This document shows, one piece after another, positions 229 through 64,000 of a stretch of 64,000 nt of DNA. Origin of the DNA: Amoebophrya sp. A120 (lineage: Eukaryota; Protista; Dinoflagellata); the NCBI GenBank assembly GCA_905178155.1, contig CAJINV010000005.1, positions 8,244,515 through 8,308,514 of the forward strand, in the 5' to 3' direction. Made by a program: the position numbers and the translations under genes. Numbering within the stretch: position 1 is the first letter of the stretch; every line of letters starts with the position of its first letter. The notes below the pieces were generated by a model. That model ran no database searches. It saw only the letters and a program-made list of their open reading frames with translations, and was not told where the DNA came from.

Positions 229-292
229 CTTCTCCTCCGACTCGGAGCTCTCGAGGCAGATCAGGAAGAGACGAAAGATCGTGGAAAAGTGA
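229..292 (+). CDS. probable terminal exon of an upstream gene (FSSDSELSRQIRKRRKIVEK*)
   Basis: Follows an introner right end. The frame was chosen on codon usage only; other frames are also open for a short distance. Confidence 0.3.
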
Positions 293-3745: not shown

Positions 3746-6700
3746 ATGGACCAGGACTTGCGACCCGGACGGGGACGATCATCATGCCGCGCTGATGCCA
3801 TGGACAACGTATCAAATGTAAAATTGTCTGGGTCTGGAAGGTTGCAACTTGTGATGCTGCATTTGGATTCCAAAAAAATCTGTATTGCATGAGCAGCAAA
3901 GGGAGTGTAATTTTTGCTATGGGAAGAGGGCATTTGTCATGCGGAATAGGCATCCAGTTCCAGAAGCCCTCAAAATATCTCTGATGCTTGGGCATGCATC
4001 ACAGACATCATTGCTCATGCAAAACTTGCATGACAAGTCTCAGAATCTTCCAGACCCAGACATTTTTGCACTTGATACAACGAGACAGCGCGCAAAATCC
4101 AACGCCGAGCCCGTGCCCCGAGTCCGTATCGGCTGGCTGCAGCCGTATCAAATGTAAAAATGTCTGGGTCTGGAAACTTGTGCTGCTGGGTGGCGTCTCG
4201 TGATGAGGCCACAAGTGCTGGCTCAGCATGACAAGTTTCTGAGCTTCTAGGTGTTGCCTATTCTGCATGACAAACTGCGTTTCTGCATCACACAGAAAAA
4301 CGGAGCTCTTGGGTAACGTGCATGACAGATTTAAGAGTCATGCCAGACAAGCATGACAAACATGCATTCTTCCAGACCCAGACATTTTTGCATTTGATAA
4401 GCCGGGCCGACGATTTATTTGCTGCGCTACGGCACGATGGCGGCAACAGCCGGCGATCGCATTTTCGGTGCGGAAGGTATGAAAGTGCCCGAGACCATCA
4501 CGGAACGAGCGTCGCGAGAATCAGAATCCGAAGCGAAGTCTTTCTCTTTGGAAGGAGCACCGGAAGATGCAGAAGGACGATCGCGCGGCCCGGCAGAAAC
4601 CGTGCAGAAAAAACAAAAAGTGCGCAAGCTGTGGAAGCGCGACAGAACCAAATTTTTGGCGCCGAACGAGCTGGTGTTGGAGCTGCTGGAGCAAGACGAG
4701 GACGAGGCAGGGCACGGTATCCTGAGCAAAAACGTCCCCAGGGATCTCGCAACAGAAGTCGAGAAGTTTTGGGAGTCACGCATGAAAAGTTCATCTCTGT
4801 ATTGTATGTAGTGCAGTTTAGCAAGTGCAGCCGCATCGCAAAGCCACCTACTCATCCTGTTTATAGCATTACAAAGTCAAAAATACGATTGGAAATGCCT
4901 CTCATGGGGATGCGTGTTACAAATCTTCCTGTGAATGCAAATCTGCATGGCTGTCTGGGGTGGGAATGTTTTTACACAGGATACACGGGCCCGCATCGGA
5001 ACGGACGGAAAATGCTGTTGACGTTGTTCTCGATGCAGAAGACCCAGCGGCGTCGTTCATGGAGGCCCCCTCGCTCGGCACCTTGTTCGATGCGCTGCCG
5101 GAGTGGATGTTTTTGAAAGACTATCCAGGAAAAAAACTATGTGATGGTAGCTTTGTAGGAAGAGCAGCATCACAAATTCGTTTTACAAAGGAAACCTGCC
5201 CTGCGTAGCTAGTACGTGAAAACACGTATGAAAGTGGCCTATGACGCACATTCAGCATGACAAACGTATTAGTTTTGCATTTTTTGCATCACAAATAGTT
5301 TTTTTCTTGGATAAAGACCCAGATTCCGTGGTGTACTACACACCGGAAAGGGGAGATTCGGCCACGACGATGACCGCCGGGGAACTTTGGACCAACGTTA
5401 GAACCGCCGTGGAAGATGCTGCGGCGGGTATCTTGGCCTCGATTAATCAGCTAAGCACGGAAAAATGACAATATCTTTGCTGGGTCGGAGAGACGAAAAC
5501 ATTGCGCGTGATGCTTGGTGCAAGAGCTGTTGTTATTTCCCGTGATTCTGTTTCCGGGTATGAAGATGTAAATAGGGTGAGATACTAAGACTAAGTACTA
5601 GTTGTTTTAGCATTAGAAGCCAGTCCTTGCTCCTTGGAGGTGGACTTTTGCCTGGTGCCCGTTGCTATTCTCACAGGAAGCGCAAGCTATAGTGCGCGCA
5701 GGAGCTAATTGTGAGTAGTCCTTGCCAGCCCTTTCATAACAAATCGAGAATGCTGTGGCCTCCAAGCGCGCGGAGTCCACACGACAAACTACGGAAGACG
5801 AGAAGACGGCGTTTCTGGAGGCTGACAGTGGAACTGATGCCACCGGAACTACTCGGGGTCGGGATTTGATGGGCCCGTGGACGTTGATGCCGCGATCGTT
5901 GGAAGACAAAGAGAAACGTTTCGGTGACCGGCCAGAAGTAAAGTTTTTTGGTGAAGCGCAGCAGATTTTGAAGGAAATCCTGGGGGGGGAGGACACTACT
6001 GTGCCACACGACAAGATTATACCGTATATTCGCGAAATTGTAAGCAAATTCTACGAACAGATCGCCAACGAACACACAACGTCGAAAGAAAAGTACCGAC
6101 AAGAACTCTCGGCCGCGCTTCTAATGCGCAGAGCTGCGACAGGTGAAGCTGAGGCAGAGCGTGTGATGGGACTCAAAGCGGGGAAGAAAGGATTGGTGGA
6201 TGTCGTCGGCCACGCGACGCCGGATACGGCGGTCAAGGAAAAAGAAGAATTGCTGGAAGCGGCGGAGAAAGGTCCTCCGACCTCGCTTCACATCCTTCAG
6301 CGGATGGGTCTGAGGGCAGTGAATCTGATGCGGGGCCCGGGGCTGCTGCAAGTGGCACTAAATCTGAAGTAGATCATGATGCCGCTCGCACCGATCCCCA
6401 GTACCCACTTTTGGTGGACATCTGTAACGATCACGATCTCCAAGTCAAACTCGCGTTGGCAGAGCTAGGAAAAGGGGCCGACACTCTAGCAGAAGTTACA
6501 GACAACGAACTAATGAATGCTATTATGCAGAGGGCCAACTGCGACTTCGTTTACGTGTTCGGCGACGTACACGGTGCCTTCGAGGATTTACTACGCGTGC
6601 TGCACACGCTGCCGGACGGTCACAAGATTTCCGATTTCCCGGGACGCATAGTGTTTTTGGGCGACTACCTCGATCGCGCGACGACGCTGGGCGATAGCTT

Positions 6701-9700
6701 TTCAACCTTGTTCTACCTGTTGTGGCTGGAGGCGACGTATCCGGACAAAATTACGCTGTTGCTTGGAAATCATGAGGACTTCAGCTACTTCACGGACCCT
6801 GGAAGCGTCATGAATACTGCGTCGCCGCAGGAGCACAACGCATTTAGGTTCAGCAAAAGGGGCGCTCGGGTCGTCCCAGCGCACCAAAAGAAAATACTTG
6901 CGGAACCTCGTTGCGAAATTCATTGACACCGAATTGGGCGGACGCCGTGGTCAAGCATTGTTGTAGCAATACTAGCGCACCACAGACGTCGGCGTCCAGG
7001 AAGCTCATTCATCTTTTACGCATTCGGAATGACAATGATCATGCACGAATAGACATTCGAAGGCCAGAGTCGTGAAGGTAGCACTCGTTCTACTACATGC
7101 AGCGCTTCGGATGCGGTTGTTCCAAGATCAGGTGTATAGAAAAAAAACTCTCAGAAGTATCTATTACGTTGAAGTATTTCTTTTGCGTGTGCTGCGGGCC
7201 TCGGGGCTGCAAGGATTTTTGTGTGCGATAACCCTTTTTGGGCACTTTGTTACATTTGATGCGGTTAAGACCCTGCTGGACCCATTCTTCGCGACAGCAC
7301 CCCTTGGGGCCGTAGCGTACGACGAAGCTTTCATTGTGCACGCGGGTATTCTTGGGCGGTTAAAGCCGATTGAGGAGCTACGAAGTGTTTCTCGTCCGGG
7401 CTTTATATGGAGTGCAAGAATTGTGTATTATTCGTGCGTCCTGTCGTTCAGGATCAAGACCGATCAGGATCTGAAGGAGACGTACGCGAGCATTGGAATT
7501 GGCATGATCGGGCACTGAGCGCCAGCGTCGAGTTAAGGAAAGTGCATGCATGTACAGATACAAGTACTCGTCTACGTCTGCGAACGATACTAGCGACGCC
7601 ACGTCATAGTTTGTGCCACTCCATAGTAAAACACTGGCACTTCTGCGGGTACTACGGGGTATACGGATCAAGAGCGGGCGAAAAGCATGGGCACGAAAGT
7701 TTTCCAGACTGTGCCGGGACATGGCGGACCGCCCCCGAAGTGTAGTTCCGACGCTGCCTTACTGTGGGCGGTATCGATCTTATCTCAATCTGTATGACCA
7801 GATACAACAGGATTAGTATGATATACATTGATGTTTTTCGTTGGCGCTGTATTTTGTTTTTGTCTTTCTTTTTCTGCTGTATTGATAGAACGCGATAAGT
7901 ACTGCGCAGCGCAGTTTTGCGAATGAAGCTTTGTTCCCGAAGTGTCTCCATCACAGCGTCGCTGATCTTTTTCTCATAGAAAAATACAGCGCACCTGCTT
8001 CCGCATAGATGTGGGTGACAGACGCAGGCGGATTCGAATTTCGAAGTCTTCGTCATCTGTATGTATCCTTCTAGGTGCGCGATTCTTTCTTTATCTTTTA
8101 CAGGACCCAGCGCGGCCTGGTCACACCCAAAGTCGTTGCGGACAAGATCAGATGGTACCCGGCGGTCGCCCATGGACTATCCGGTGAGGAGACGCCCCCA
8201 ACCTGTAGTCAAGATGGTCGTAACCATCCTCGACAAATCCGCAAGTTTTGGGAGTCAAGCGTAAGAAATTTGGGCCTATGCAGGTAGACAAGTCCGCAAG
8301 TAATTTACTTGCTTATCCTAGTAGATAAATGACTTGCGAAATTTGCACAACTAGATGAAAGTGCCCCTCATACAGCGAGAGCAACATGGAAATTGCAGGA
8401 CAAAAAATCTGGCGTGGGGGCGTTTTTGCATCGGATATGGGCCGCCGAAGTAGCCAAAGAATTCTTTTCCCTTAACGGGATCAGGCTGCTGCTTCGTGGG
8501 CACGAGCCGGGAGAGTTTTCCGACATGGTAAAGAGCTTGCTTATTTGTGTAACGTCGTCGTTTGTTTCCACTTTCTTTTCCCCGGTTTGAGATGTTGTTG
8601 TCAGCACCTCAATGTTTTTTTTCTTCAGATATCGAAACAAATTAAGATCAAACTATAGTGACTTTCGTCGCTGCAAAGGGTTTTAGGGTGTCATGGATTT
8701 AGTCTAGGGGTCCTATTGTGAGGTGTGCAAATGCTGAAATTCTGGCCCACCGCACAAATCGGGAATCAAAAATGCACCAACTTACCACAGCTGCTTCAAA
8801 AATCGGGAATCAAGAATGAATATCCAACTTACCACAGGTTCTTCAAACGCTTTGGGCAGGAGCTGTGTCTGAGGCGATCAGATTCAGTGGTGCGGGACCA
8901 TGGGTTAAAGAGCTGGAGGACAGACTCAACAATCGCAAGAACATCCTCCAACGTAACGCACATGAAAACTATGTGGTTGAGCTACGAACGGAATTCGTCA
9001 ATGATCGTTCTGGGCCTTACAGTGCCAAATTGGACAATGGCAACGTGGTGTTCTTGTTCTCGAGCCCGAAGTATGGATCGGATTCGAGGAACCTCGCATC
9101 TTTTGGTAGGTTGGATCGAAGGATAAATGATGAAGAGCCACGACCACCACCTCATGTTTTTGGTGAAAAGGGAGCCCTGGACAAATTTGTGGGGGAGTCA
9201 AATCGCCACGCAACTTCTGTCAAACAAGCGCAGGAGTACCTTTCTCGCCTCCCTGAAGAGTACAAGCATACCAACCCAACATTGCTGCAAATCTCTGGCG
9301 AAAAATCCCCATACAATTACGATTCTATCCATCCGGACCGGCCGGCACGAAAGCGACTCGACGCTATCAAAGGTAAATGCTTCTGGGTCTGCAAAAGTGC
9401 AGATGTTTGTCATGCTGCTTTTCAGTGACGAAGGAGAAGGTCATTTGGCATGCAAGCTCTAGCGTCACACCTTTTAATCTTAGTAACGTTAGTAATGCAT
9501 GACGGTGTTATCAAGAATAAGAAATGGCAAAGCTTTTTTTGTCCATGCGTGACCGACTTTTTCGTGATCTGAAATTGTGTGCGGCAGTTTCCAGACCCAG
9601 GCATGTTTGTAATTCACAGAGGCTCAAGTGTCGCAATTTGTGGAGCAGCTCGACAAAATCAAAAGCCTCGACGACAAGAAGCCGTCCAAGTTTACGGAGA

Positions 9701-9786
9701 ACTACTACGTTTTCGGAAGAGGTTCCTTTGAGCCGGGGGCAGGGGACGAGCAAAAAGTAGAGTGGGTTCCCCTTGATGATGAGTGA
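3746..9786 (+). CDS. PPP-family (calcineurin-like) Ser/Thr protein phosphatase with a long N-terminal extension; multi-exon, possibly frameshifted or decaying
   Basis: Motifs GDVHG (~6561), GDYLDR (~6660), LLGNHE (~6758), VHAG (~7337), LLRGHE (~8490) and FLFSSPKYG..N (~9050). The 5' exons join in frame after introner removal; the internal exon structure over 5430-8870 is uncertain. Confidence 0.7.
3810..4077. mobile_element. introner family A
   Basis: TIR plus TSD CAACG/CAACG. Confidence 0.9.
4146..4399. mobile_element. introner family A (same subfamily at 11858 and 13647; reverse orientation at 55221)
   Basis: TIR plus TSD AGCCG/AGCCG. Confidence 0.9.
4718..4983. mobile_element. introner family B (TIR TATCCTG.G.AAAAACGTCCCCA)
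   Basis: TIR plus TSD CACGG/CACGG. Confidence 0.9.
5122..5313. mobile_element. introner family C (TIR TATCCA.GAAAAAAAC)
   Basis: TIR plus TSD AAGAC/AAGAC. Confidence 0.85.
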
Positions 9787-10485
9787 CGCGTTACCAGAGG
9801 TATAGGCCATGAATTTCCACATCCGGAATATTGTTGCACCTACCCTTGGGATAGCCTATGGTCGACCCACGCAGGCCTGCCTTGATGGCTGTGATTCGCA
9901 AAGCAGTTACGTTGTTAGGCGGTATTGAGATACAACTGATCGACCCTCTAATATCATTGCCGTGATAGATAAAACCATGTTGCTCATCATGTCTGTCGCT
10001 CGGCGACGGGCAGTAGTTCCAAGGGCGATTTTAGAATACGGCTGGTTTCTTTCCCTGCGATAGGGCGTTGTTGGGTGTTTTGTGTTCATCATCTTCATGC
10101 TTTACCGAACCACAACCCCGAGCGGCTTTTGCAAGCTGAAAGAGTGTCGTTGAGACCAGCACGCGCTCAGGGGTACTGCGTTTGTAGAGTCTATTACTTC
10201 TGCACCTCCCATGCAGGAGTACTACCAGGAGCAACAGGAGAGGAGAAGCGTGTTTCTAACGAGGAGCACGTTCACAATCAGTATTTTGTGTTCTCTGTGA
10301 GAAGCCTGTCGACAAGCAAATCTGGATTAACATGACTGGCGCCAGACTGCTTCCACCCACTGACCGTCCCGCAGTAGCGTCCGCTCTTGCGGTTCACCAC
10401 GACTGCTGGGGCGCGCTACAGCGGATTTCTGCGTAAAAGCGTCGCACCGCGTTTCAGAGGAGCTCAGCAAGAACATCTTAACACG

Positions 10486-13400
10486 ATGACCGACAACTCC
10501 ACTTCTCCGCGGAACAAGCAGCGGACCATGACCGCCTGGTCCGCGGCTTCTTCGAGTTGCGGCACGGCCTATCCTGCGTGAAAACGTTTTCCTCCCAGAG
10601 TCAAGTTGCGAAGTGTACAACACAAATCCAGAAGTATTGGGAGTCACGCATGACAAGTTCCTCTCTGTAGTGTAGTGCAGACTCTTAGCAAGGACAAGCG
10701 CATCGCAAGACCATCAGCTCGTCCTGTTTACAGCATCACAAATTCCAAAAATTGACTGAGATGAATGCCTCTCATGGGGATACGCATGACAAGTCGTTCT
10801 GTAGATGCAAAAATTCTGCATAACAACTCAGAAGTGGGGACATTCTTCAACAGGATACGGCCAATTCCGCGGTGACCGGGTCCAGTAATGGAACGAATCA
10901 AAATTCGCAGTTTTCTTTCGGGAACTCGAATACCGGAAATAACCACCTCGACCAAACAGGCTCCGGGCCGTCGCCGTCGGGCCAAAATAGCAGGAACTCC
11001 GGTGGTACTGGTAGTGGTGGACCAGGAAACAACAATAAGCCGACGATTTTGATGTTAAACAATTCCATCACGAAGGAAAACAGTGAGGCCAAGAAGAAAA
11101 TAAACAAAACAACAACCGAAATAAATTCAACTGCCTCTTCGAAGCAACCGATAATTCCTTCTGGGTTTTTGCTAAAGAAGTTCCTCGGCTATGATCCCTA
11201 CAGCGGGTCCCTCACCGACCACTACGAACTGGGGCAAGTGTTGGGGCGTGGGGCTTATGGGGAGGTCGTGGCGGCGCGGCTTAGGCCGAGGTCCAGATTA
11301 TTCTCGTCGGTTTGCTTGTCCTGTTGTCTGTCAAAGCAGAAAGTCGAAGCGTTGATCGCGGCGCCAGATTATCTAGTGCAAATATGTCTGGGTCTGGAAA
11401 AGTGGAACTTGTAATGCGTGCCTTGCATTCCTGGAAAATCTGTGTTGCATGAGCAGCAAAAGAGGAGCTTCCTTTGCAATGAAAAACGCAATTTGTAATG
11501 CGTGCTAGGCAGCCATCAAGAGGCGACGTCTGAAAAACTTGTCATGCTTGGCTGCCATTGCAACCGCTTCCGTCATCCGCAACTCCGCACCACAGGTTTT
11601 CACACCCAGACATATTTGCATTTCATACGGATCTGGACGAGTTGATCGAATCGTTCCGGAACAAACGGTATCCTGTGCAAAAGTATCGTGCTCGCATTGC
11701 AGTCGTGCATTACAAATTTTTTTTCTTGCGGTAAATCCGCATGACAAATTTGATTTCTCTTGCTGGGGAAATATGTAATGCATACGAGTACGATACCTTT
11801 GCAATGCATAAACGGAACTTGAACGCGGGGCGGCACGACAGGGACAAGGACAGCACCTATCAAGTGCAAATATGTCTGGGTCTGGAAACTTGTGATGCTG
11901 GGTGGCGATTCACGAGGAGGCCGGAAGTGCTGGCTCAGCATGACAAGTTTCTGAGCTTCTAGGTGTTGCCTGTTCTGCATGACAAACTGCGTTTCTGCAT
12001 GACAGAGAAATGGGGCTCTTGGATGTTGTGCATGACAGATTTAAGAGTCGTGCCAGACAAGCACGACAAACATGCATTCTTCCAGACCCAGACACATTTG
12101 CAATGCATAGCACCAGCGCAGGCACGATCTCGCAGGGGCTGAGTGCGAGTAGAAGGATGATGCGAAACACGCTAAACTCCATGCCGTTGGGGAGATTTCG
12201 GGATCGTGAAGCCGAGGAGGCTATGCATTTCAAAAGCATTGTGCCGTTAGTAGGAATCGCATCGCAAATTTTCTCAGCATTAGACTTGGAATTTGTAATG
12301 CTGATTTGCCTTTGATAAAAAAATTTGTCATGCATGGTTGCGATTACTATGAGTGCGATATTACTTTTGCACAGGATAGAGGCAGAGGAGGACATGGATT
12401 TCGAAGAGATCCTTGCGATTAACGAGAGAGATATTCAAGAAAAAAACTGTGTGGGTGTAAGTCTGTAATGCAAAGGATACAAAACAGCTACGCTTGTCAT
12501 GCTGGCCAGCCATCAGCTGCTATTTATTTTCAACTGCGTTTTCGCGTGATATTACTAGCTGTGCATGACAGGTTTTATTTCTCCGACAGCATGCAGTGCA
12601 AATTGAAATTTATCATGCTGTACGTCCAAGACACCTACCCTCTTTTTTTTCTTGGATAGGAGAACAAACGGCGCAGCAGCAACAGCAGCAAAACCGAACT
12701 TCTACTGCGTCGAACAGTGGGAACAATAATAACAAGCTATCAAAAGGAAATTTCCCCCCTCCCCATATCAAAACGAAACTTCTCATGCTGGATTTGTGCA
12801 CACAAATCAGATTTGTCTTGCTGCCGAGGACTGCAGGCCCATATCAGGCCTGAGTAGATAAGTTTTGGCCTAGGCGCTTAGCATGACAGACGTCTACGCT
12901 TTAGGAGCAACAGCATGACGAACCGCCTGTAGAATGTGGCGGAGCCTGTAGATTTGCCTTCATGCAATACAGCGACGATTTGTCGTCTCAAATCAGCATT
13001 ACAAATTTTCAGAAGTGTACCGGTTTGGTATGGGGAGGGGAGATTTTTCCTCACAATACAAGCCGAAAGTCTTCCGGAGCTTCTTGAAGGTACTGTTACT
13101 TCTATGGCAAATTAGTAACTAGAGCTCGTGCGCATTTTTAATCTAGATCTTCAGTTTCTTGTCATGCACATGCGGTATCTGTTTCTGTGGTGTGCATGAA
13201 TTACTTATCTTTGATCCAGATCCACAGCATGATCTTCGGGAAAGCCATACTACGTTCGGCTAAAAATTCTCCGCATGATCATGATCTTGGTGGACCAGAA
13301 AATTCTACAATTACCAGGGCACCACCACGAGTCCGACTTCCCACAGCCCCGCTATCATAAGAAAAAAGTGTTACAGTTACACATTTGTTCGTAACTTTAG

Positions 13401-16400
13401 CAACACAAATTTTCTGTGCATGAGAGGGAAAGCTTGCAATGCACAGACCACAAGGGAATAAAACACGTATGAAAAGAAGCTTGGTGGAAGCATTTCTGGC
13501 ATGACAGAGGTTGTCTGTCATGCTCGGCTTGCAATCCAATCTGTAACTGTATGTAGCACTTTTTTCTCGTGATACCCGCTGCCGTCGTTCCAGTGACGGA
13601 TACGGAAGCAAATGCAGAGCAAAACCGGAAGTCCACCCGGTCCTCCTATGAACTGTAAAAATGTCTGGGTCTGGAAACTTGTGATGCTGCGTGGCGTATC
13701 ATGAGGAGGCCACACGTGCTGGCTCAGCATGACAAGTTTCTCAGCTTCTAGGTGTTGCCTATTCTGCCTGACAAACTGCGTTTCTGCATGACAGAAAAGT
13801 GGGGCGCTTTGGTAATGTGCATGACAGATTTGAGAGTCATGTGAGACAAGCATGACAAACTTGCATTCTTCCAGACCCAGACATATTTGCAACGCATACC
13901 TCCATTTTCAACGCGATATCATTTACGAAAAACCGCACGAGCTCTCACGGCCCGAACAAGAGTCACCTGCACGCGCCCGGCGGGACCCGATCGAGCATCA
14001 TCGCAAGCCTCGTCCCCAGTAGCTTCTCGCGCACGAGCTTGGCCGGCGCGCAGTCGTTCGTGACCAGCGAATCTTTCGTGAAGAGGATTTGCAGTTACGA
14101 CGAGTCCGCTTTGCGGGCCCGGCCGAGTCCGAATGACGCGCTGCGCCGGGCCGCCACGCAGCGAAACAGGCAGAAGAAAACGAACAACGACGGAACTGCG
14201 ATGGGTAAGGCCACCGTGATATTCGGGACGAAGGGGATAGCCAGTGCGATATCCTGAGCAAAAATGTACCCACCCCAGAGTTGTCATGCAGATTTGCAGC
14301 TACAGCAAGATTTGTAATGCGCATACACATGAGTATGAGAGGCATTTCCAATCACGTTTTGCGCTTTGCAAAGCTGTCGACAGGATGAGTAGATGGATTT
14401 GTGTTGCGGCTGTGCTTGCTAAACTTCACTACAATACCTAGGCGAACGCGTCATGCTGGACCCCCAAAACTTCTCGATTTGTGTTGCGAGATCCTCATCT
14501 TGACTCTGGTGTGGGGAGCTTTTTACACAGGATATGCGAAAAGTAGTTCGGGTCCTGGTGGTGCGGGAAAGAGTCCGAATCACGCGCAAAACGCCATCGC
14601 GATACAGGAACAGAGAATGCTACAGGCGGAGGAAGAGGTATCGTTCTTGTGATTATACCGTTGTTAGACGTTGGCTGACGCTGATGTCATGCGTTTCATG
14701 GATCGATTTCGATTTCAATGCTACCCTTACCCGAGCCCGTGCCTGTCATGCCGGTAGACGAAGCTCTTCTTGTACGACCAAGAAAATAAAAACCTCTAGC
14801 ACCCTTATCAGATACAAAACACGTGGACCTTCGCCGTGAAGTGCATGAAGAAAGCGGCTCTGATATCATTTGTAAAAACGTCCCCACACCGACACCAGAG
14901 TCAAGTTGGGAATCTAGCAACACAAATCTCCATGTTTTGGGAGCTGTGCATGACAAGTTTCCCTCTGCAGTGTAGTGCTGGTTGGCAGGGGAAGCCGCAT
15001 GAGAAAGCTACTTTCTCATCCTGTTTACAGGATTACAAATCCCAAAACAGGATTGGAAATTCCTCTCATGGAGCTGCGCATTACAAATGTTCCTGTCATT
15101 GCGCATTTGCATGACAACTCTGTTGGTGTGGGGACGTTTTTACTCAGGATATCTGATAGAAGAGGAGAAGAAGAAGCTGGAGTCTTTTGAGAAACGCATG
15201 CAGGCCATCAGTAAGATGCTCCAAGAATTGGAGTTGAACGGGCAGCAACAAAACCCGGAACTGATGAACAATGTGAAGAACCTGTTGCAAGTCCCGGGTG
15301 CTGCCGGCGGCGGCGCAGGCGGCGACGGCACCACGGAAAAGCAGAGCAGCCGGTGGTCGGTCGTGAAAAAAATCTCCGTCACGGTCCAACGTCCCTCCGC
15401 CCTGCTGTCGGTGCTGCGAATCAGCAACAGCAGCAACGCGAACGCAGCAGGAGCTTCCCCCGGGGGGATTGCAGGCAGTAAACGAGAACCGCATTTGGGG
15501 CTCGGGGACTCGAATCTTAATTTGATCAGCGAGAATGGGACTACAGTGATGATGAAACAGTCCACTGCGTCGCAAATGAAACAGTCCAACTCCCCCTTAA
15601 ACCTTATGTCTTGCAAATCTGTAGTCTGGGTCATCTGGGAGGCTCGAAGACACGTATGATGCTGGACTCGTCGTCCCACGCTCGTTAAACAATTCCGTCA
15701 TGCATGTTGCGCTGCAATAGCGCTGCATCTTCTTTGTCATGCAAAAGCACTGGTGTTTCTGTTGCGACTTTTGCGCACCACAGAACCGTTCTTCAAGAGT
15801 TTGTCATAGTATTTGCGAGTAGTTTCTAGATTAGCATGACAGCAACTTTCATCCACAGGACCCAGACGTATAATTTTCTTCAGTGCATAAACCGGAGACA
15901 GTCGCAACTCTCCGCCGGCCTACCTGCGGTGAATCTCCGATCTATGAAAAGAAAAAAGTTTGTCACAGTCACTAACGTGCAGGTTTTGCATGAGAAATTT
16001 TTCCAGCATCACAGGTTTTTCTTGTATTGCAGAAACACTAGGGAAATCTCTTATGAAGTTTGGCTGTGATGCATTTTTACGCATGACAGACAGTTTTGTA
16101 TTGCAAAAATGCGCATGAGTGATCGTGACGAACTTTTTTTGTTTGATACGATCCCCGATGCTGTTACTCGGCGGCAATTACGTCAGCCAAAAACATCGGT
16201 ATCGCAAGAAAAAAGTGTTACAGTTTTTCCACATTGTGTTGCAGGCCAAGCAAGACAGACAAGCTCTGTCATGCCGGATATGCACCATAGGAGCCTCGTT
16301 TCATAGGCGTTTTCCCGTAGGATTTCTGCATTACAAGTTTTCTCTCTCATGCAGAGAAATTTGCGTTGCTGAATTCGCTACAAATGTGTAACAGTAACAC

Positions 16401-25650: not shown

Positions 25651-25768
25651 GTAAAGAACCAGCAGCGGCTCCCGCTTCGTCGTCTAGCATCACAGATTTT
25701 ATTCATATTTCGAACGAGTTCGTACTGTCTGGCAGCTTCAACAGTGGTTGTGCCAAGAACTACATCAG

Positions 25769-42663: not shown

Positions 42664-42778
42664 AGGTAGCTTTTGGAAAAGAACCCAAGCGACAAAACAA
42701 GTTGTACTACTGAGGAAAAACACAAGGTAGCTTATTTTGGAAAAGAACCCAAGCGACAAAACAAGTTGTACTACTGAG
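42664..42778 (+). repeat. ~50-bp direct tandem duplication, intergenic
   Basis: TTTTGGAAAAGAACCCAAGCGACAAAACAAGTTGTACTACTGAG occurs twice. Confidence 0.85.
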
Positions 42779-53600: not shown

Positions 53601-56600
53601 CTCGAAGTGCCAAATAGGCTAAAAATCTGTGCCAAATCTGTCATGCAAAAGGCGCAATCTTTCCCCTTTTAGTTTTCCCATGCTTGCATCACAAACTCAT
53701 GTAACAGTTGAGAATGTAACAGTTGAGAACGCCATACGGGAAACTCCAAGCCGCTAAAACTGGCGGACCCCCAAGGCTGGCTCCACGTTTCGTTTGACGG
53801 GAAACCGTATGAAATGCAAAAGTGTCTGGGTCAGGGTCTGGAAGATTGCGAGACTGTCATGCTGATCTGGCGTGACCCTTAAATCTGTATTGCGTGGCCA
53901 CAAACAGCCTCTCTCGCCTGTCATGCAAAAACGCAGTTTCTCATGCGGAATACGCAGCACAGAAGCACGAAGCAACTTGTCATGCTCGGCGGCGCATTAC
54001 AGTGCATTTGTTATTGACTGACTTGCATCACAAGTTTTCAGACCCAGACATTTTTGCATTTGATAAACCGAAAGTGCAGACTTTGCAGCGGAAAAACGTG
54101 GAAGTCACCTTGGCGACCGAGGCGAAGAGCAGGCTCGCAGGGCTCGCGAACTGGTTTTCCGGTACGCGTTCCGAGGTGGCGAATATGAAATGCAAATATG
54201 TCTGGGCGGTCTGGGAGATTGCAACATTCGTCATGCTAGTCTGGCATGCCTCTGAACTCTGTATTTCATGGCCGCTAAGAGGAGCTCCGCCTCCCTGTCA
54301 TGCAAAAACGCAGTTTCTCATGCGGAATATGGAACTCAGAACCATGAAAAAAACCTGTCGTGCTTGGCAGCGCATTGTAGCGAGCTCACTATTCCCTTCC
54401 TTGCATTACAAGTTTCCAGACCCAGACGTATTTGCAATGCATAGCGAAAGCAGAGCTGCAAGACACCTTCAAGAAGGACAAGAGCTTTCACGAGCACCTG
54501 GTTGGGGTGTCCCCGACTCAATTCCTCGCCGCGATGCTCAAGTCGTGGAAAAACGCCCCGGACCCGTTTGGAAGGAACGGATTCGATATGGATTGCAAAA
54601 GTGTCTGTCATGCTAAAGCCGAATCATGCAAAAATCTGTGTTGCATGACTGCCAAAAGCTGTCCACTTTCGACCAAGTTGGGAGGGAGTTTCTCATGCAG
54701 GATAGGCATGACGGAGACCTCACAGACGCTGTCATGCTAGGTCCCGCATGCCAGACCTCATGGGTCATGGAAAACCTGCATGACAAGTTTACACCCTTCT
54801 AGACCCAGACATATTTGCAGTTGATATTCGATCCCTTCGCCTCGCAGGAGACGTTTCTGAACAGTTTGAAGAGCGTATTACAGTGAAAAATGCGCCCACG
54901 ACCCCAGAACTTGGAAGTAAGTATTTGTATTGCAAACCTTTCCAACGGAAACATTCGCCGTCTTGCATGTATCAGCATCACAGATTTTCAATCGTGAATA
55001 GAAAAAATCTGTATTGCAAAAGATCCCAGCAAGAGTGGCGCTTGTCATGCAAGCGATGCTGTATGCGACTAGACTCTGCATCAGAAAGATTCATAGTCCG
55101 TTCATGCAAGACAAAAAGTTTTCATTTGGAAACTTCGCATCACAAACACAAACTTTCGGGGTGGGGGCATCTTTCCGTTTGATAGAGCGGCCGGGAATTC
55201 TGTTGGTTTGAGTCGCTCTCTATCAAGTGTAAGAATGTCTGGGTCTGGAAGAGTGCATGTTTGTCATGCTTGTCTGGCATGACTCTCAAATCTGTCATGC
55301 ACGTTACCCAAGAGCGCCATTTTTCTGTCATGTAGAAACGCAGTTTGTCATGCAGAATAGGCAACACCTAGAAGCTCAGAAACTTGTCATGCTGAGCGAG
55401 CACCTGTGGCCTCCTCATGATACGCCACCCAGCATCACAAGTTTCCAGACCCAGACACTTTTGCATTTGATACTCTCCATGATGCAGTTCGGCACAGACT
55501 GGCAAGGCGACTGGCGAGGTACGGGAAGAAATGGGAAGTCCAGCCTGCCACTTTACCCAACGCCGACGCTGGAGATCCGCCCGGGCAAGGAGTGCATGAA
55601 GGAAGACAAGGACATCCTGCAAAATATCCTGTGTAAAAACGTCCCCACCCCAGAGTTGTTATGCAAATTTGCAATGACAGGAGCGCTTGTAATGCGCTTC
55701 CCCATAACAGGCATTTTCAATCGTGTTTTCGCATTTGTAATGCTGCAAACAGAATAAGCAGATGGATTTGTGATGCGGATGTCCTTGCTAACATGCACTA
55801 CACTGCGGACTGCAACTTGTCATGCGTGGCTCCCACAACTTCTGGATTTGTGTTGCTAAGTTCCCAAATTGATTATGGGGCGGGGACGTTTTTACATATG
55901 ATACAAAAGATGAACGACGCTAAGGCGGCCAAGGAAGAAAGTTGGCACGGCGCGGTGCAGAATCGCTACCAGAGCATGCAGCGATACTTTGGGGGCGGCT
56001 CCACCAGTGAGGAAGGCGTCATTGTATCAAATGCAAAAATGTCTGGGTCTGGAAGAATGTAAGCTTGTCATGCAGGTTTTCCATGGCCCATCAGGTCTGG
56101 AATGCGGGACCTAGCATGACAGTGTCTGTGAGGTCTCTGCCATGCCTATCCTGCATGACAAACTCCCCCGAAACTTGGTCGAAAGTGGACAGCTTTTGGC
56201 ACTTATGCAACACAGATTTCTGCATGATTGGGATTTAGCATGACGAGTTGCAATCTTCCAGACCCAGACATTTTTGCAATCCATACATTGCGGGGAGCGA
56301 CAAAATCCCGTTTGAGACAAATGTGGCCGATTTGGTATTTCTGCGGCCAACGGACCAAATGGTGCTTTCTCCGAAGCTGAACATGCGGGAGTTCCGGCTT
56401 TTCACGGGGAATGGGAAGTTCGCCTCTATACAAGTCGAAGTTCTCGGCGAAATTCGGTTGTACCGATCAGAAGGCAGCAATCGCGCAGCAAGGCCGTTGT
56501 TTTCGAAGTGGTACCTTGCTCCGGGCGCAGGTGGGAACAGGCAGAGTCCGCCGAACTCGCAGCTGTTATCCTCTGCAAACGTATTGTACTTCGTAGTAAT

Positions 56601-59600
56601 TGCAACTCTGCATGAGCATGACCAATCTGATCTCGCGTGTAAGGTACGCCAGCAACACAAATCCCATTTTATTTCATGTTGAGCAAATTTGTATAGGTAA
56701 TTGCCACTGATACGATGCTTTTGCAATGCATAGCTGTCCTACACTTCCAATCTGCTGCAAGGAGAGAACAATGCGCAAAAGATGCAGCTTACCGTCAACC
56801 AGCCGATCCCCTCGGGAGAGAAGTGTCCGGTGCAGCTGCAGTTAAAAAGTAGCAGCCAGCTCGGGAAGGCGGAAGACGAACAGTTCATCGAAGATCTGGA
56901 AGATGCTACTGCGCTCGTCGCGGTCAAACCCATTCTCCTGTGGCTCCTGCATGACCCGCTCTGCGAGTCCCTGCGGCGCACTGGACTCGAGCGAACGGCA
57001 AACGGTTTTGATCCTCTCGTGTCTGGAGAAATTCTGCCGGCCGCGTCTTCGTTCGTCGAGGAGAACGTAGAAGAACAAGAAGGGCTGCAACGTGAAGAAC
57101 TGCAACAGGAGAAAGAAGAAAAACGCTCGTCTCACCGTCTCCGCGCGGCCGCGTGTGGTGCGAGACAGGGTCCCGGGGCGGGCGCGCTGGGTATCAAATG
57201 TAAAAATGTCTGGGTCTGGAAGATTCTGACACTTGTCATGCACGTTTTGCATGAGCCATGATGTCTGTGATGCATCCCCTAGCAATACAGATTTTTTGAG
57301 GGCTCCTTGATGCGTATTCCGCATGACAAGTGCCTTCTCAGCGTAGCAAAAATTGCCTTTCCTTAGGTACTCATGCAATACAAATTTTTTTGGAATCCAA
57401 ATGCAGCATCACAAGTTGCATTCTTCCAGACCCAGACACTTTTGCACTTGATACTGGGCAAGGCGGTGCAAAAGTTGAAGGCGCTGGCGGCGAATTTTGC
57501 GTCAGACAATCCGCTGGAGAAATACCAAAAATTCGGCACGAAAAAGGAGTTCTACGTGACCGCGCACTCCCCGACTCCGGCGGGCACTGCCCCTCCCGCG
57601 ACCCTTCCGACCCCGGCTTTGCGACGAATGAACAGTGAGATGACCGGGCTGGAACGCGCGCTACACTTGCTCTTTGACCACACCAGCAAGCAGAACCTGT
57701 TTGAAGGCTTGAAAATTGCGGCGCAAGCGAACCACGCGCGGGCAAGGCTGTACGAGAAACAACTGGCCGACCACTTGGCAAGGCAAAACAAGGCCCCGCC
57801 GAAGCCGGTGCCCAAGCCGAGTTGGTGGACGCGGGCGGCCGCGGGTCTGCGGAACAGGTTTGGGGACGACAAACAGCAGGACTTCGAATATCTCACGAAA
57901 AAACTGTTTCACTGTGATTATTTATTTGCAAGTTTTGCATCACAAGTTTGTTCTACATCACAAAGGAAGTTTGCAGCCATGCGAGCTTCCTAAGGGAAAA
58001 CACGACTAAATAATGCATTTTCTGGCATGTGTAGCAAGACAGACACTTTTGCGATGCACTTTCTGCATGAGAAACAGTTCTTTCTTGCGATATCGAACTA
58101 AAAAAGATCAATCTTGAATGGGATTTCGACTCCATGAAAAAATACGCGGTCCACATGCTATATGCAGTGCACAAGGATCGTACTCGTACTAATTGCGTTT
58201 ATGCATTACAAATCTTTTTCTTATCCGCATTGCAAATTCAATTTGTAATGGCTAAGGCAATTTGTAATGCAATTTATACTAGTAAGATGCTTTTGCACTG
58301 CATATGCTACACCCGAAACGGGAATTTGATTTTTCGAGCAACCGACCACAAGACGGCAACCAGGTCCACGCGGACAAAGTTCTCTCCGACTACGACTCTG
58401 TGACTACCGGTAGCGGGCGCAACGTGTACGATTTTGGGCCGAACAACCTACCCCCGGTGCGGCTTGCGAGGTTGATGCGGTTTCTGCAGTACAGCAATTA
58501 TGGCCTAGCGGTGGCAGCGAAGCAGAAAATTACCCCGGGATCCTTCCCGGGCACGGAGCCGGGTCTGGGCCCGGGCCCCGTGGCGATGATCAAAGATCCG
58601 TTCAAAATCGCGTCGCCATTCGACACGAACGAAATTCTGGAGGGCCCGGGAGAAAAATCGGACAAGACACTGATTTTGAACTATTTTAAGCGCAACAAAA
58701 TACCGATGATTGACATCCAGGACGGCATATCAAATGCAAAAATGTCTGGGTCTGGAAGAGTGCCAGACTTGTCATGCAGATTTTACATGACCCATGACGC
58801 CTGTAATAGATACCCTGGCATCACAGATTTTTAGCGGGCTTTCTGATGCCTATCCCGCATGAGAAATGCCCTCTCCATGTAGCACAAACTGGACCCCTCG
58901 TCTTGCTGGTCATGCAATACAGATTTTTTCAAAATGCAGAAACAGCATCACAAGTTGCAATCGTCCAGACCCAGACACTTTTGCATTTGATACGGCATGC
59001 GCCGGGTGATGGACGCGAGCGAAGACATCGGGAACTCGTTCGATCTATCCTATGTAAAAACGTCCCCACCCCATAGTTCTTGTCATGCAAATCTGCATGG
59101 TAAAATGCACCTCGTTTGTGTAAGAGATTTCCCTTCGTAAGAAATAAGCACTTCGTAAAACGTATCGCCATTGCCCTCGCTCATGTAGAAATACCAAGCA
59201 GATACTACAACAGACTAGCAGCGTGCGGGGGGAGACCAATGTGGTCTCCCCCCGCCCGCTGTGACTATTAAAAAACACACCAGAGAACTTCTTTTTTTCC
59301 AGCAGAGGCTGGTCGTGGGTTGTGGGGATGAGAAATAGAAACAATATGCTAGCACGATTTGGAGTCAGCCGCAAGCTCTTTAAGATTTCCGCTTCGCTTT
59401 ATTTCAGTTTTACAGCACAGACAAGCAACTAGATACAGACTAACAGACACTAAGTTCAGAAGAAAACACTACGAAAAGCGAAGATCTGCCTGCTAGCGCG
59501 GACATACGATACGCACGCGGGGGAGGAGGGGGAAAACGCAAGCGAAGCGAGAACAAGACGCGCAGTACAATGGGCTGGAGCAGAGGACAAGAGCAGATAG

Positions 59601-62600
59601 TAAGAATATCAAAACAAGATGAAAAGTGCACGCATGCACGCGCACTGCTTAACTGTGTGAAAGGTGTCGGCCCTGTTTGACCTGCTGCGGCAGGCAGGTG
59701 AATTCGTAGAACTGCCTCACATGTTAAGTAACGCACACCGGCCTCCTAGTTTTAGTGATGAATTAGTGAGTCCAATTAGATAACGATGAAAAAATTAGAT
59801 AACGAATGACTAGAATAACTGAATGATGAAAAATTTATATGCGCAGCGGCTTACTGCGCAGCGTCGGTTCGTGCACGTGTGTCGCTCTTCGTTCGTTGTC
59901 TCCAGGAGCTTGATCGTAAATTCGTGCGCTCCTCCTGCTTTATAAAATTCGATCTTCCCATCTGCCCCCGTTTTCCCACGTAGATTTAGATCTCTACCCT
60001 TTTATATCTTCTGTCGTTTAGTTTTGTTGTTTTGCCTGACTTGCCTTCTTAGCGCTAGCCCGCGCATCCCGCGTTCTTGCAGGGGCAGCTGTCTTTTTTT
60101 CCGCCTTGCCAGCGGATTTTGTCGCGGGGAAGAAAGCACTCTGGGTTCAACGGTCCCCGCCCCCCCTCGTCGTGGGTTCAACGGCCCCCATCCCTAAAGA
60201 GACCACTTAGAAATAATTCTACAGTAGATTGCAAATTTTACAGCGGTCGCCCGTTTTGCATCGGCCGAGGCTGCACACGCGTCCGGAGTATTTTTCACTG
60301 ACGTCCCTCGGCTTGGGTCATATGATGTTCTTCGTCAGGTCGCGCAGCCTCTATTAATGCGATTCGGGTCGGCTGCGCCCTATGGCTAGTATCTGTGATC
60401 CAGCTCGTCCATATATTTCGGGTTTCGACCCGAATAGCGCGCACTAGGCGCAACTATCTCTTTATACAGTGGTCTCTCCCTATCTTTACTATCTTTCAGT
60501 GCAGCGGCTTACTGCACTTATCGCCCTACGGAGACTGTGATCTGACCTCCCTCTACCTCCCCTGGTGGACGTCTGCCGCGGCTTACGGCTCTGGACGTTA
60601 ACTAGGATCGAGTGCGTTGTGCGGGTTTAGGGTTTTGAATATTTAATTTTGTATCTCCCACTGCTGCATGCACCCTGCTGCAGAACTTGTGATGCAAAAC
60701 AACCTCCGGGTTGTTCCCGCGCTTCAGGAGTAGTTCTGTTGCGTGCGGGCAGCAGAAGATGAGTAATGCTGTTGGTTTAGGGGGTTGAAAATGTTTGTGC
60801 ATGTGTAATGCAAAAGATGAAAAAGATTCGCGCGTGGGAGCGCATTTTTAAGCACAACGGGCGGGTGCCGTTCCCGCCGTCACACAATCACATACAATAC
60901 AATACAACAGAGCGGGGCCCAATCAAAAAAAAAAAAAATCTGCATGGTAAAATTGTTTCTCATGCGGAGCCCTATGGGAAGTGTTTTCTCGTCGTGTTTG
61001 GTGGAAATTTATGATGCTTGAATCAGCATGCTAGGCTAGGCCTGTGATGCTGCTGGGGCTAACTAAACAGGATAATGCTCCGAAGCCAAATTTGTCATGC
61101 GCAGCAACCAAAGCTGGTGAATTTGTCTAGCAGGATTCTCATCTTCACTCTGGTGTGGGGACGTTTTTCGATAGGATACGAGCGGCAAATCAACGCGAAC
61201 GACGTGAAGTCGCAGCAGGGCGGGCGGTTTCAGTGGCTCCACCTCGGGTGGCACCTCACCGCGACGCCCCAGCCCTTGCCCGCTTCGGGAACCACCGCAC
61301 CAAACGACGTACTGTACGGCATCCGGCGAAAGGCGATAGGGGACGAGATCGCTGACATCTTGCCGGAATTCCAGCTGTCGCCCGACACCGCGTTCAGTAT
61401 CCACGAGCAGCCGTCGGTAGGCCCACCTGGTGGCACCAAATTTCTCGATTTGGGGCAGCAGGTTTTGTCCCCAATTCCGACCACGTTTCACGTCACGAAC
61501 TTTTTGACAAATTTTTGGAAGAAGCAGCCGGTAAAGCAACAGCCGTATATAGCCAAGGCGATTTTGCGGGACGGCTTTGACGAAGACAACGGGTGGCACG
61601 ATGGCATCGTTGTGAAAATGGGTAGCAAGAAAAAGTTTGACTTCAACGAGGCCCATAAACCGGTGGATTCTATGAGAGTGCACAACTCCTCCTCCCCCTC
61701 ATTTGTATTGCATGAGCAGCAATGCAGACACCAGCACACGTCGAGCCTGCACATGACAAACTCAGTCGCCTAATGTACTGCTGTTTGGGTTTATTCCGGA
61801 ATCTGTCATTGAAACAATGCCACAGGGAAGCACTTGGACTTGGGTTTTTGCATCACAAGTGAGGGGGTATCGGGGGGGTTGTGCACTCCTATAGTTTCCT
61901 TCGAGAAGCCGGAAGTGGCGGCGGCCTGGTACCAAGCTTTGATTGCGTCCAACCCGCTGGCGTCTCCGCGAGGTCCCAACCCCATGATGACGTTCAAGAA
62001 CGGATATGCATTGCAAAAGTTGTATCGTACTAGGTAGTACAAATTGCATATTTCTCAGCGTGAAAAATAAAAATTGAATTTGTCATGCTGTTTTACCTTG
62101 GAAATGCGATTTGTAATGCATCACTGCAATTGCTACGAGTGCGATACTTTTGCACAGGATAACGGAGCTGGCGAGCTGATTTTCGCCAAGATTGCGGAGT
62201 TACTGGCGCTACTGGAACGGTCGTGCTGCGGCGAGATCGAGTTTTTTTGCGCGATATCAACTGTAGAAATGTCTGGGTCTGGAAGAATGCAACTTGTCAT
62301 GCTGATTTTGAATTCTAAAAAAATCTGTATTGCATGGGCAGCAAAGAGAGTCCAAGTTTTGCTACACGGAAAGAGCATTTGTCATGCGGTATAGCATCAG
62401 GAAGCCTCACAAAATCTGTGATGCTAGGGCATGCATCACAGACATCAGAAGTCCTGCAAAATGTGCATGACAAACGTGGAAATCTTCCAGACCCAGACAT
62501 TTTTACATTTGAAACGCGAAGAAAATTGAGACGGTCATGGTGAAGGACGAGAGCGGCGAGTTTGCGAAGTGGAAAAAGGAAAAGCAGCAGAAGCTCGACG

Positions 62601-64000
62601 CCGATGGGAGAACGGCTCTGCGCGGGGGAGCTGCTGCGAGCAGCACGACCGCTGGTGCCAGTACAACATCGGACGAACCTCCTTTCCCCTACCCCTGGCC
62701 GGTGGCATCGTTCTGTTCGGTGAAAGAGGAGTACGTGCGCAAATTCAGCCTGGCGCGGGAGTTCAAGGACCCAGGTACTGGCACGATATGACAGTGCGCA
62801 ACTCCCCCTCCCCCTCATTTGTCATGCAAAAACCCAAATCCAGTTGCTCGTTGTGGCGCCGCGTGCATGACAAATTCCGGAAAGCCCGATAGTACTACAC
62901 TCGGAGCATGAACCTGTCATGCACAGGACGCACCTGTACTGGTGTTTGTAATGCTGTTGATGCCACGCAAATGATAATGAGGAGGAGGTGGGGGGGTTGT
63001 GTACTCTCATACACGAACGCGTTGGATGTGAAGCAGTACGAGGTATTTGGAATATCAAATGCAAATATGTCTACTGGGTCTGGAAGTTTGGGATTTGTGA
63101 TGCTAACTCTCGATCCTACAAAAAACTGTATTGCATTACCAGCAAAAGGCGCTCAGATTTTTGCCACGACCCGGATCGGGCATTTCTCATGCAGGATAGG
63201 CATGATGAAGCCTTCGCGAGGGCTGCGATGCTAGAGAATGCACCACAGGCATCGTGGGTCATGTACTATATGCATGACAAACACCCAACTTTTCCAGACC
63301 CAGACATATTTGCAATGCATATGGAGACAAAAGCAACAATAGCAAACCTCCTTCACCGACCGCGTCGCTGTTCACCATGACACAGCGAAAAATGTACAAG
63401 AACTGCGGGCCGATCCCCAATCCCGAGGCAAGGCGGTCGAACTTGGAGGACTTGGTCGGCGACCGGCTGCAGTTTAACACCGGCCAAGCAGTGGAGGATG
63501 AAAAGTGGATCGAGGCGATTCGGGCTGTGTTACCAGTCATTGAATCGGCGGTGCGGGTGTACGATGAGGACTACTTTCACAACTTGCACCATCAGAACGC
63601 GCACGACTACAACCTGCGGGCCTCGAACCCGGAAAGTTCGTCGTCCGAGTGCAAAGTGAACATGAACGAGAAACTTCCGGTCGCAGAATGGCAAGTGGGG
63701 AACAGCTATCAAATGTAAAAGTGTCTGGGTCTGGAAGAATGCAACTTGTGATGCTGCATTTGGATTCCAAAAGAATCTGTATTGCATGAGTACCAAAGGG
63801 AATGTAATTCTTGCTACGCGAAGAGGGCATTTGTCATGCGGAATAGGCATCAAGAAGCTCTCAAAAAATCTGTGATGCTAGGGCATGCATCACAGACATC
63901 AGGGCTCATGCAAAACGTGCATGACAAGTGTCAGAATCTCCCAGACCCAGACATTTTTGCAATGCATAACAGCAACAGCGGGACGCGCGAGTCGAATCAA
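50691..64000 (+). CDS. very large uncharacterised protein (at least 25 exons; acidic and Arg/Pro-rich N-terminal region), continues past the window end
   Basis: Open frame maintained across 24 consecutive introner excisions from 51163 to 63968. No domain recognised. The start codon could alternatively be near 50745. Confidence 0.75.
53502..53736. mobile_element. introner family L (TIR TATGGCGTTCTCAA.TGTTACATTCTCAACTGTTACA, with internal tandem repeat)
   Basis: Near-perfect ~38-bp TIR, TSD CGGGA/CGGGA. Confidence 0.9.
55221..55472. mobile_element. family A introner, reverse orientation relative to 4146-4399
   Basis: Internal sequence is the reverse complement of the 4146/11858/13647 copies, TSD CTCTC/CTCTC. 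Confidence 0.9.
59046..61178. mobile_element. family B introner expanded to 2.1 kb by a retro-insertion
   Basis: Both TIRs present, TSD CGATC/CGAGC, frame restored on removal. Confidence 0.8.
59107..60935 (+). mobile_element. non-coding poly(A)-tailed retroposed insertion (SINE or truncated LINE-like)
   Basis: Flanked by direct repeat AAATCTGCATGGTAAAAT (59089-59106, 60936-60953); A-run at 60925-60938. Confidence 0.75.
63707..63968. mobile_element. introner family A (close relative of 3810-4077)
   Basis: TIR plus TSD ACAGC/ACAGC. Confidence 0.9.

Follow-up and report, generated by a model that had tools for sequence, protein, structure and literature searches.

The introners of Amoebophrya sp. 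A120 are described in the text of Farhat et al. (2021, PMC7789003) as having inverted ends of TAT, 7 nt and AAA, short direct repeats and non-canonical splice junctions, and family lengths near 150, 208, 255, 278, 305 and 320 bp occur among rows 1–21 of the 58 given by Gozashti et al. (2025, PMC12130899). How Amoebophrya introners move, with no transposase reported in A120 and putative transposases in A25 only, and how they are spliced, with no GT-AG junctions and no U1 found, are open questions stated in the text of PMC7789003. The 64-kb stretch of A120 DNA analyzed here (contig CAJINV010000005.1, positions 8,244,515 to 8,308,514; the window) is rich in elements of this type, in which the short motif TGT(C/G/A)ATGC, or GCAT(G/C/T)ACA on the opposite strand, is repeated. 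Repeated subterminal motifs are the transposase-binding sites of Ac and Spm. Transposase binding to subterminal motifs of miniature inverted-repeat transposable elements (MITEs) is described in the text on Lemi1/Emigrant (PMC1636448). The text on the IS3EU/GingerRoot DNA transposons gives TA..TA termini and usually 6-bp duplications (PMC10045372), and plant intron-mediated enhancement signals are described in the text of PMC3355757 as intronic, orientation-independent and, as is argued there, acting on DNA.

The elements of the window resemble the A120 introners, as the text of those papers presents them, in their TAT-N7-A ends, short repeats, non-canonical junctions and family lengths, and RNA joints show an element plus one repeat removed from the mRNA, as in the known type. 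The internal motif, its spacing and its presence in GT-AG introns were found here and are unreported in the searched text of PMC7789003 and PMC12130899: the motif strings have no match in the text of either paper with its supplements, a search that left aside figures and files 13–14 of PMC12130899. The preprint of a 2023 Current Biology paper does not mention Amoebophrya, and a literature search, with subscription papers outside its reach, returned no report of the motif. Like the subterminal motifs of MITEs and other terminal inverted repeat (TIR) elements, the word is short and internal, occurs in either orientation at set distances from the ends, is as conserved as the TIRs and is common to elements with divergent bodies. 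It differs in recurring across 14 or more families whose TIR bodies are not the same, in spreading over the whole element in pairs 31–33 bp apart and in being kept in TIR-less host introns; here it is known from sequence, and its binding is predicted. The TA..TA termini are shared with IS3EU/GingerRoot, whereas the duplication is 5 bp here and usually 6 bp there. Intron-mediated enhancement, likened to the motif by description and not by sequence, has in common with it the intron location, the orientation independence and the argument for action on DNA, but the present motif is transposon-linked and strictly spaced. Introners are known, and repeated subterminal sites are of a known kind; what the searched text does not report is the motif with its helical layout and its persistence in introns that have no TIRs. 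Being a strictly arranged site of 10 bp, it can serve as bait with which to fish for the missing protein, and by mutating it both movement and splicing could be probed, and a host role, if true, would mean a DNA-encoded intron mark common to transposon and host.

Abundance and Layout of the Motif in Introners

The motif occurs 295 times in the window (145 forward and 150 reverse), whereas 20 dinucleotide shuffles yielded 8.9 on average and never more than 14. When the window was searched for inverted ends flanked by a duplication, 86 candidates emerged; seven were discarded by eye as spurious, and the 79 TIR elements kept cover 22 kb and contain 247 of the copies, and the remaining 48 lie mostly in decayed elements or GT-AG introns. 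An earlier sequence-only reading of the window had described a word repeated within elements in both orientations, and this is borne out, but that reading had missed how strictly the copies are spaced and that the site is 10 bp long. The full site consists of the 8-mer with two purines after ACA, a form seen in 1402 of 1563 element copies, and has the weaker variants GCATGAGA, GCAATACA and GCAACACA; a weight matrix refined by iteration converged on nothing broader than the strict word.

Sampling was extended with a pattern of three spaced motif copies, which matched 119 stretches in metagenome contigs; 118 sister loci were analyzed, all from assembly JACKZZ01 and comprising 526 kb, with four overlapping loci dropped. 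Window and sister loci together gave 494 elements in 49 clusters, 14 of which have at least 4 copies. The loci were chosen by motif pattern, and pattern-bearing elements were excluded from the copy-divergence, orientation, decay-simulation and TIR-slope analyses. A perfect motif is present in 480 of the 494 elements, mostly in 2–5 copies each; four of the other 14 have not even a variant, and two of these four are exon-flanked. The motif is also missing from four nested repeats and from a TAT-ended element of 988 bp. Element ends comprise TAT, seven freer bases and a run of A (logo of 988 ends, TAT at one end being a requirement of the finder) and are flanked by 5-bp target-site duplications, the length that the finder looked for; the RNA joints show 5–7 sliding bases. 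Lengths cluster near 150, 205, 260, 280 and 310 bp, several peaks lying ~52–55 bp apart. The view that the families share no other sequence was partly wrong, since they have in common TAT-N7-AAA ends, 5-bp duplications and internal pieces 60–75% identical between families; given these shared pieces, common descent with shuffling is likely.

RNA contigs of one sample covering 45400–49000 skip five TIR elements, each with one duplication copy, as well as one non-canonical and four GT-AG introns (10 joints listed). In a second RNA-contig comparison, 15 of 68 joints were listed and four of these were real, two of them removals of an element plus one repeat, and the raw reads of two RNA runs (58 and 41 aligned, almost all 90–95% alike) were uninformative on splicing. 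Copies flanked by exons number 369, compared with 10 non-coding copies. Orientation relative to transcription is 88:43 in family 0 and 3:12 in family 6, with most other families even.

Pair spacings were counted in the window elements, which are free of the motif-pattern selection bias. Same-direction pairs at 31–33 bp number 42, against 5.7 expected (maximum 13 in 1000 randomizations), and inverted pairs at 15–17 or 46–49 bp number 26 against 4.4, whereas only 6 same-direction pairs lie at 30 bp or less, where 47.6 are expected. Each family has its own site layout while the spacing rules are common to families, and 13 of 14 family consensuses contain a 31–33-bp same-direction pair with unrelated spacers. 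Tandem duplication as the origin of these pairs was rejected, the paired words being identical less often than by chance (0.14) and the spacers unrelated. Of 28 family ends, 22 have an inward-pointing outermost site 32–33, 40–44 or 52–55 bp from the end, giving R = 0.80 for phasing at 10.5 bp (22 family ends); at the other six the first site is oppositely oriented, at 34–47 bp. A protein seated on a single face of B-DNA would need just such three-turn pairs and one-turn end steps.

Sites within elements are evenly divided between the strands of the transcript (716 forward, 705 reverse), and family 2, with sites all pointing one way, is inserted 37:24 by orientation. Inverted partners carry the same variant at rates of 0.17–0.25 at 45–49, 16–18 and 34–36 bp, compared with 0.21 by chance; the rate is 0.39 at 49–51 bp (23 pairs) and 0.47 at 16 bp, the latter mostly in family 0 as selected by the search pattern. 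RNA pairing between inverted sites was rejected for this absence of covariation. Element interiors do fold (mean z -1.84, n = 30), and motif-bearing GT-AG introns fold no better than shuffles (mean z 0.04). Because of the strand symmetry, the lack of covariation, the lack of folding in GT-AG introns and the helical steps, the site is likely read as double-stranded DNA; of the RNA- or DNA-binding factor that had been suggested, the RNA side is thus not supported.

Motif Copies in GT-AG Introns and Their Probable Retention

A motif-blind gene finder applied to the sister loci predicted 368 introns, of which 73 passed the filters (GTA...CAG, flanked by coding sequence, unmatched by any element, located outside the window), 17 of these with a perfect copy. 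The final set of 81 TIR-less GT-AG introns, here called canonical, consists of 72 sister predictions, the orthologue of a window intron being dropped, and nine window introns, five of them chosen from the sequence-only reading. The gene finder placed 6 of the 9 window GT-AG introns within 3 nt. The 81 do not include the putative introns of the phosphatase region 5556–10203, which are motif-free and where hardly any RNA contig aligns.

Perfect copies number 34 in the canonical introns, compared with 3.0 in shuffles, and the motif is their top enriched word, with 2.4 copies per kb against 0.09–0.21 per kb in non-intron non-coding DNA. The enrichment in introns is genuine, as the comparison by region called for in the sequence-only reading confirms, and the motif is far from equally frequent in intergenic DNA. 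Three tracts named there as intergenic and nearly motif-free (22600–24900, 41520–45470 and 49000–50600) hold 0, 1 and 0 copies, but 22228–22800 and 48943–50013 are transcribed 3' exon or UTR (untranslated region), the latter being exon in RNA contigs. The metallophosphatase stretch 5400–9360 is also motif-free. All five GT-AG introns named as motif-bearing have 1–2 copies; 45605–45747, 46106–46286 and 48774–48942 are seen spliced in RNA contigs, while splicing of 13090–13219 and 14638–14811 is taken from sequence, neither being among the RNA joints listed. A perfect copy is present in 24 of the 81 introns (8 of 9 in the window and 16 of 72 in the sister assembly), a site with at most one mismatch in 56, compared with 33.6 in shuffles, and a weight-matrix match at p < 0.05 in 34. 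With so many introns free of the perfect word, and with 14 elements also free of it, the motif cannot be called universal as had been proposed. The canonical copies retain the two flanking purines in 26 of 34 cases but not the next element-typical bases, same-direction pairs 32–36 bp apart make up 8 of 26, and the motif lies 17–173 nt from the 5' end, at no fixed distance from either splice site. An RBFOX-like reading was rejected, TGCATG occurring 18 times in sense and 24 times in antisense in canonical introns.

Motif-free canonical introns look real because they have the same G-poor 3' end as the motif-positive ones: in the 31 motif-free introns shorter than 200 nt the 3' G share matches that of motif-positive introns (0.097 and 0.094, compared with 0.22 at random). 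An obligatory intron-definition code is not supported, given this common signature and the introns that have no perfect copy, and the motif, being absent from some introns and lacking strand or splice-site positioning (716:705 in elements), does not behave as a universal intron signal. Canonical introns end, at the 3' side, in sequence poor in G and rich in A and C, and a pyrimidine tract is absent. The share of motif-bearing introns drops with length, from 10/17 below 140 nt to 11/35 at 140–199 nt and 3/29 at 200 nt or more.

Neutral decay was simulated on 150 elements and compared with the canonical introns, which show an excess of 2.2 perfect sites per kb, 0.84 one-mismatch sites for every perfect one and no match to any family. 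With 20% of positions mutated, the simulated ratio is already 2.4 and 126 of 150 elements are still detectable; at 35% the ratio is 8.5, 20 of 150 elements remain detectable and the excess has fallen to 0.27 per kb (0.17–0.27 per kb over 35–40%), and decay to BLAST-invisibility gives a ratio above 8. Introns with an element match had been filtered out beforehand, which favors old introns and makes the excess harder, not easier, to explain. Canonical introns match one another only in short pieces. Neutral decay as simulated here does not fit the motif copies in TIR-less GT-AG introns; decay at the neutral rate would have counted against the earlier proposal of retention. A generic CpG-decay sink was rejected: in canonical introns GCATGACA (n = 25) far exceeds every one-mismatch neighbor outside the variable position (maximum 5), and these introns have no CpG deficit, with a CpG observed/expected ratio of 1.0 (1.0–1.1 elsewhere) compared with 0.61 in elements. 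CpG differences between window 14250–22227 and its sister locus L061 amount to 35/247 in introns and 11/185 in UTR or intergenic DNA (p = 0.007). Because of these differences and the low ratio in elements, CG methylation directed at introners is likely.

Within families, column identity is 0.90–0.98 for the motif, 0.80–0.93 for the TIR and 0.71–0.92 for the spacer, and among 474 copies divergence relative to the spacer is 0.31–0.61 for the motif and 0.24–0.48 for the TIR at all identity levels. As judged from these alignments, conservation among copies has the pattern of sequence needed for movement. As TIR divergence rises from 0 to 0.26, spacer divergence rises from 0.070 to 0.165 and site divergence from 0.031 to 0.080 (457 copies), a site-versus-spacer slope of 0.45 (confidence interval (CI) 0.26–0.70; slope 0.44 without CpG columns), in agreement with the earlier claim that the motif persists after TIR decay. 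Window 14248–24216 has its orthologue in L061, and in the 17 introns shared with it sites differ at 11/371 positions and spacers at 142/2691 (p = 0.03; 0.08 without one divergent copy). The motif/spacer ratio is 0.44 for genic and 0.74 for intergenic copies, although the 10 non-coding copies are too few. Single sites are often lost, and the alignments indicate that site protection in resident introns is partial at most.

Proposed Uses in Mobilization and by the Host

The explanation that we prefer, with confidence about evenly balanced for and against, is that the motif is a double-stranded DNA site for a protein of the mobilizing complex, whose binding is predicted, and that the host probably makes a second use of it in some, though not most, ordinary introns. 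The protein would be the binding domain of a putative transposase or a host co-factor, seated on helically phased site pairs, and by bending or shaping the short element it would allow both ends to meet. The same binding would benefit resident introns, most likely through chromatin marking or co-transcriptional recruitment of splicing factors, helpfully but not obligatorily, such that one or two perfect sites would be kept long after the TIRs were gone. The binding, the identity of the protein and the benefit to introns are what we infer. That the primary user is the mobilization complex is suggested by the helical phasing to the element ends, and the host-level use is likely because simulated neutral decay does not account for the canonical-intron copies and because, once TIRs erode, sites change at roughly half the spacer rate; orthologous introns give a weaker signal. 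The sequence-only reading, in holding a transposase-binding site alone to be too little, was probably right in view of the outlasting of the TIRs and the GT-AG copies, but it ranked mobilization second, where we take it as the primary use. A broader form, which we offer tentatively and hold less likely than not, is that introns would be flagged on the DNA and that one phased-pair protein would serve the transposition of introners and, co-opted by the host, mark introns for co-transcriptional splicing, letting tens of thousands of non-GT-AG elements become removable introns in a lineage in which no U1 has been found.

Several observations weigh against the preferred explanation. Of the 81 canonical introns, 72 are gene-finder predictions without RNA and 57 have no perfect site. 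Their sense-strand bias of 25:9 (p = 0.009 against 0.5, 0.057 against the shuffle share) speaks against a pure DNA site, because such a site predicts none. Duplication mismatch as a proxy for age was uninformative (slope 0.81, CI -1.2 to 4.9), and TIR differences may in part be subfamily differences. Three further locus pairs show no effect (3/77 at sites and 41/1106 in spacers), orthologues and paralogues together give 14/448 at sites and 183/3797 in spacers (p = 0.06; 0.13 without one divergent copy), and a context-matched orthologue test gives 10 compared with 16.2 (p = 0.07). Pattern-selected elements were kept in the family-identity, covariation, consensus-layout and end-distance histogram analyses, and the families are related, so the 22 phased ends are not independent. 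The 590 kb of window and loci yielded no transposase, autonomous element or binding protein, and no long TAT-ended element with an open reading frame (ORF) of transposase size; the TIR pattern had 0 matches in viral and prokaryote contig collections.

Some of these points would follow if the site served mobilization only and the host gained nothing, the GT-AG copies being relics of old insertions, members of young unsampled TIR-less families or slow-mutating sites shielded by protein. Such an account is doubtful, though it is in keeping with the phasing to element ends, the tracking of TIR by motif conservation among copies, the non-significant orthologue test (p = 0.06), the 70% of canonical introns without a perfect site and the two exon-flanked elements without even a variant; moreover, 42 of the 81 canonical introns start GTAT, as G plus a TAT end would give, with GTA imposed by the gene model. 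What it leaves unexplained is the combination of 2.2 sites per kb, a ratio of 0.84 and no BLAST match, which simulated neutral decay cannot yield, together with the lack of mutual matches beyond short pieces and the CpG ratio of 1.0 rather than 0.61 in canonical introns. The converse, a host mark that came first, in which a host protein aids a U1-less spliceosome, introners mimic the mark and the phasing reflects distance to the splice junction and not to a transposase, is unlikely. Retention in canonical introns would fit it, as would the motif in 480 of 494 non-canonical elements, the 369 exon-flanked and 10 non-coding copies and the U1 snRNA (small nuclear RNA) undetected in A25 or A120 according to the text of PMC7789003; a copy in a broken gene that has lost all its sites points the same way, a single case for which neutral decay predicts likewise. 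However, element sites are phased to ends while those of canonical introns keep no fixed distance from splice sites, most canonical introns have no motif, and motif-positive and motif-free short introns share their splice signals.

An RNA-level code, whether read by an RNA-binding protein or an snRNA or acting by pairing of inverted copies that folds the intron, appears very improbable, since the reader would have to accept three variants of the word and three of its reverse complement, many introns have sites of one direction only, and the 31–33-bp and 10-bp steps match B-DNA. The window has no Rfam matches. The 25:9 sense bias is the best point in support of an RNA code; others are the folding of element interiors, in which predicted folds bring 64 of 230 sites into pairing with a second site, the 88:43 insertion of family 0 and the 0.47 match of 16-bp inverted pairs, mostly from pattern-selected family 0, although the other inverted-pair classes show no covariation.

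Features of the Window

Coordinates of the motif sites, introns and elements in the window.
Feature	Position(s)	Strand	Remarks
Motif sites, consensus (A/C/T)GCAT(G/C/T)ACA(A/G)(A/G)	43..63971	either	295 copies
TIR-less GT-AG intron	13090..13219	+	1 site (13160); from sequence
TIR-less GT-AG intron	14638..14811	+	2 sites (14685, 14744), both unchanged in L061
TIR-less GT-AG intron	21312..21421	+	2 sites 32 bp apart (21341, 21373), unchanged in L061; RNA joint 21311>21422
Non-canonical intron, faint TIR remnants by eye	22035..22227	+	1 site (22164); RNA joint 22034>22228
TIR-less GT-AG intron, DHHC gene	34847..34997	+	variant sites only
TIR-less GT-AG intron	45605..45747	+	1 site (45707); RNA joint
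Non-canonical intron, faint TIR remnants by eye	45812..46049	+	1 site (45857); RNA joint 45811>46050
TIR-less GT-AG intron	46106..46286	+	2 sites 35 bp apart (46176, 46211); RNA joint
TIR-less GT-AG intron	46693..46850	+	2 sites 32 bp apart (46716, 46748); gene model, consistent with RNA-contig coordinates
TIR-less GT-AG intron	47456..47597	+	1 site (47550); RNA joint
TIR-less GT-AG intron	48774..48942	+	2 inverted sites 79 bp apart (48821, 48900); RNA joint
Family 0 TIR introner	3810..4077	.	~262 bp; 2-5 perfect sites each
Family 0, other starts	17769, 19513, 32667, 33553, 40401, 47175, 51163, 51510, 52229, 53174, 54587, 56025, 57192, 58728, 62255, 63053, 63707		copy at 47175 spliced out with one duplication (RNA contigs)
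Family 4 introner	4146..4399	.	~253 bp; TIR same as family 0
Family 4, other starts	2310, 2607, 11858, 13647, 46875, 48463, 53808, 54184, 55221		copy at 48463 spliced (RNA contigs)
Family 10, related to family 4, starts	11370, 20651, 21520		copy at 21520 spliced (RNA contigs)
Family 2 introner	37250..37528	.	~279 bp; sites all one direction, gaps 31-48-33-49-31
Family 2, other starts	4718, 14250, 14864, 19205, 20139, 27759, 29817, 33212, 38613, 39100, 46365, 55625		copy at 46365 spliced (RNA contigs)
Family 1 short introner	21845..22007	.	~150 bp; spliced (RNA contigs)
Family 1, other starts	11669, 12222, 20481, 58161		related family 13 at 37869
Family 3 introner	16200..16415	.	~209 bp; others at 5122, 13353, 18434, 25769, 57889
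Family 8 introner	48077..48388	.	symmetric site pairs 32 bp apart, both ends; spliced (RNA contigs)
Families related to family 8			family 6 at 12738, 32291; family 9 at 30645; family 12 at 30160, 54876
Family 7 introner	53502..53736	.	no 31-33 pair; gaps 47-50-45
Family 5, related to family 7, starts	37547, 61671, 62787		
Old family-2-like copy	8178..8437	.	in a phosphatase gene that appears broken; no sites left; TIR and duplication still visible

The metallophosphatase gene (Pfam) at 5742–9785 appears frameshifted and has almost no RNA cover. A GC-rich 740-bp repeat family without the motif is present at 16908–17641, 24921–25655 and 31077–31820, two of its copies being nested in introners. 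The 988-bp motif-free element at 35110–36097 has TAT ends and a 5-bp duplication and lies within a GT-AG intron, the 3' part of which occurs twice (34846–34997 and 36098–36221); the DHHC exon has dinoflagellate and apicomplexan homologues. An insert of 1.8 kb at 59108–60940, with an A tail, a long direct repeat, two motif copies and no ORF longer than 117 aa, splits a family-2 introner. Window 14248–24216 and L061 are ~95% identical, although each strain has many introners that are absent from the other, and introner-empty sites retain one copy of the 5-bp duplication. The element at 15943–16148 occupies the same site in both strains and is ~18% divergent, compared with 4–5% for its neighbors, which suggests parallel insertion or gene conversion.

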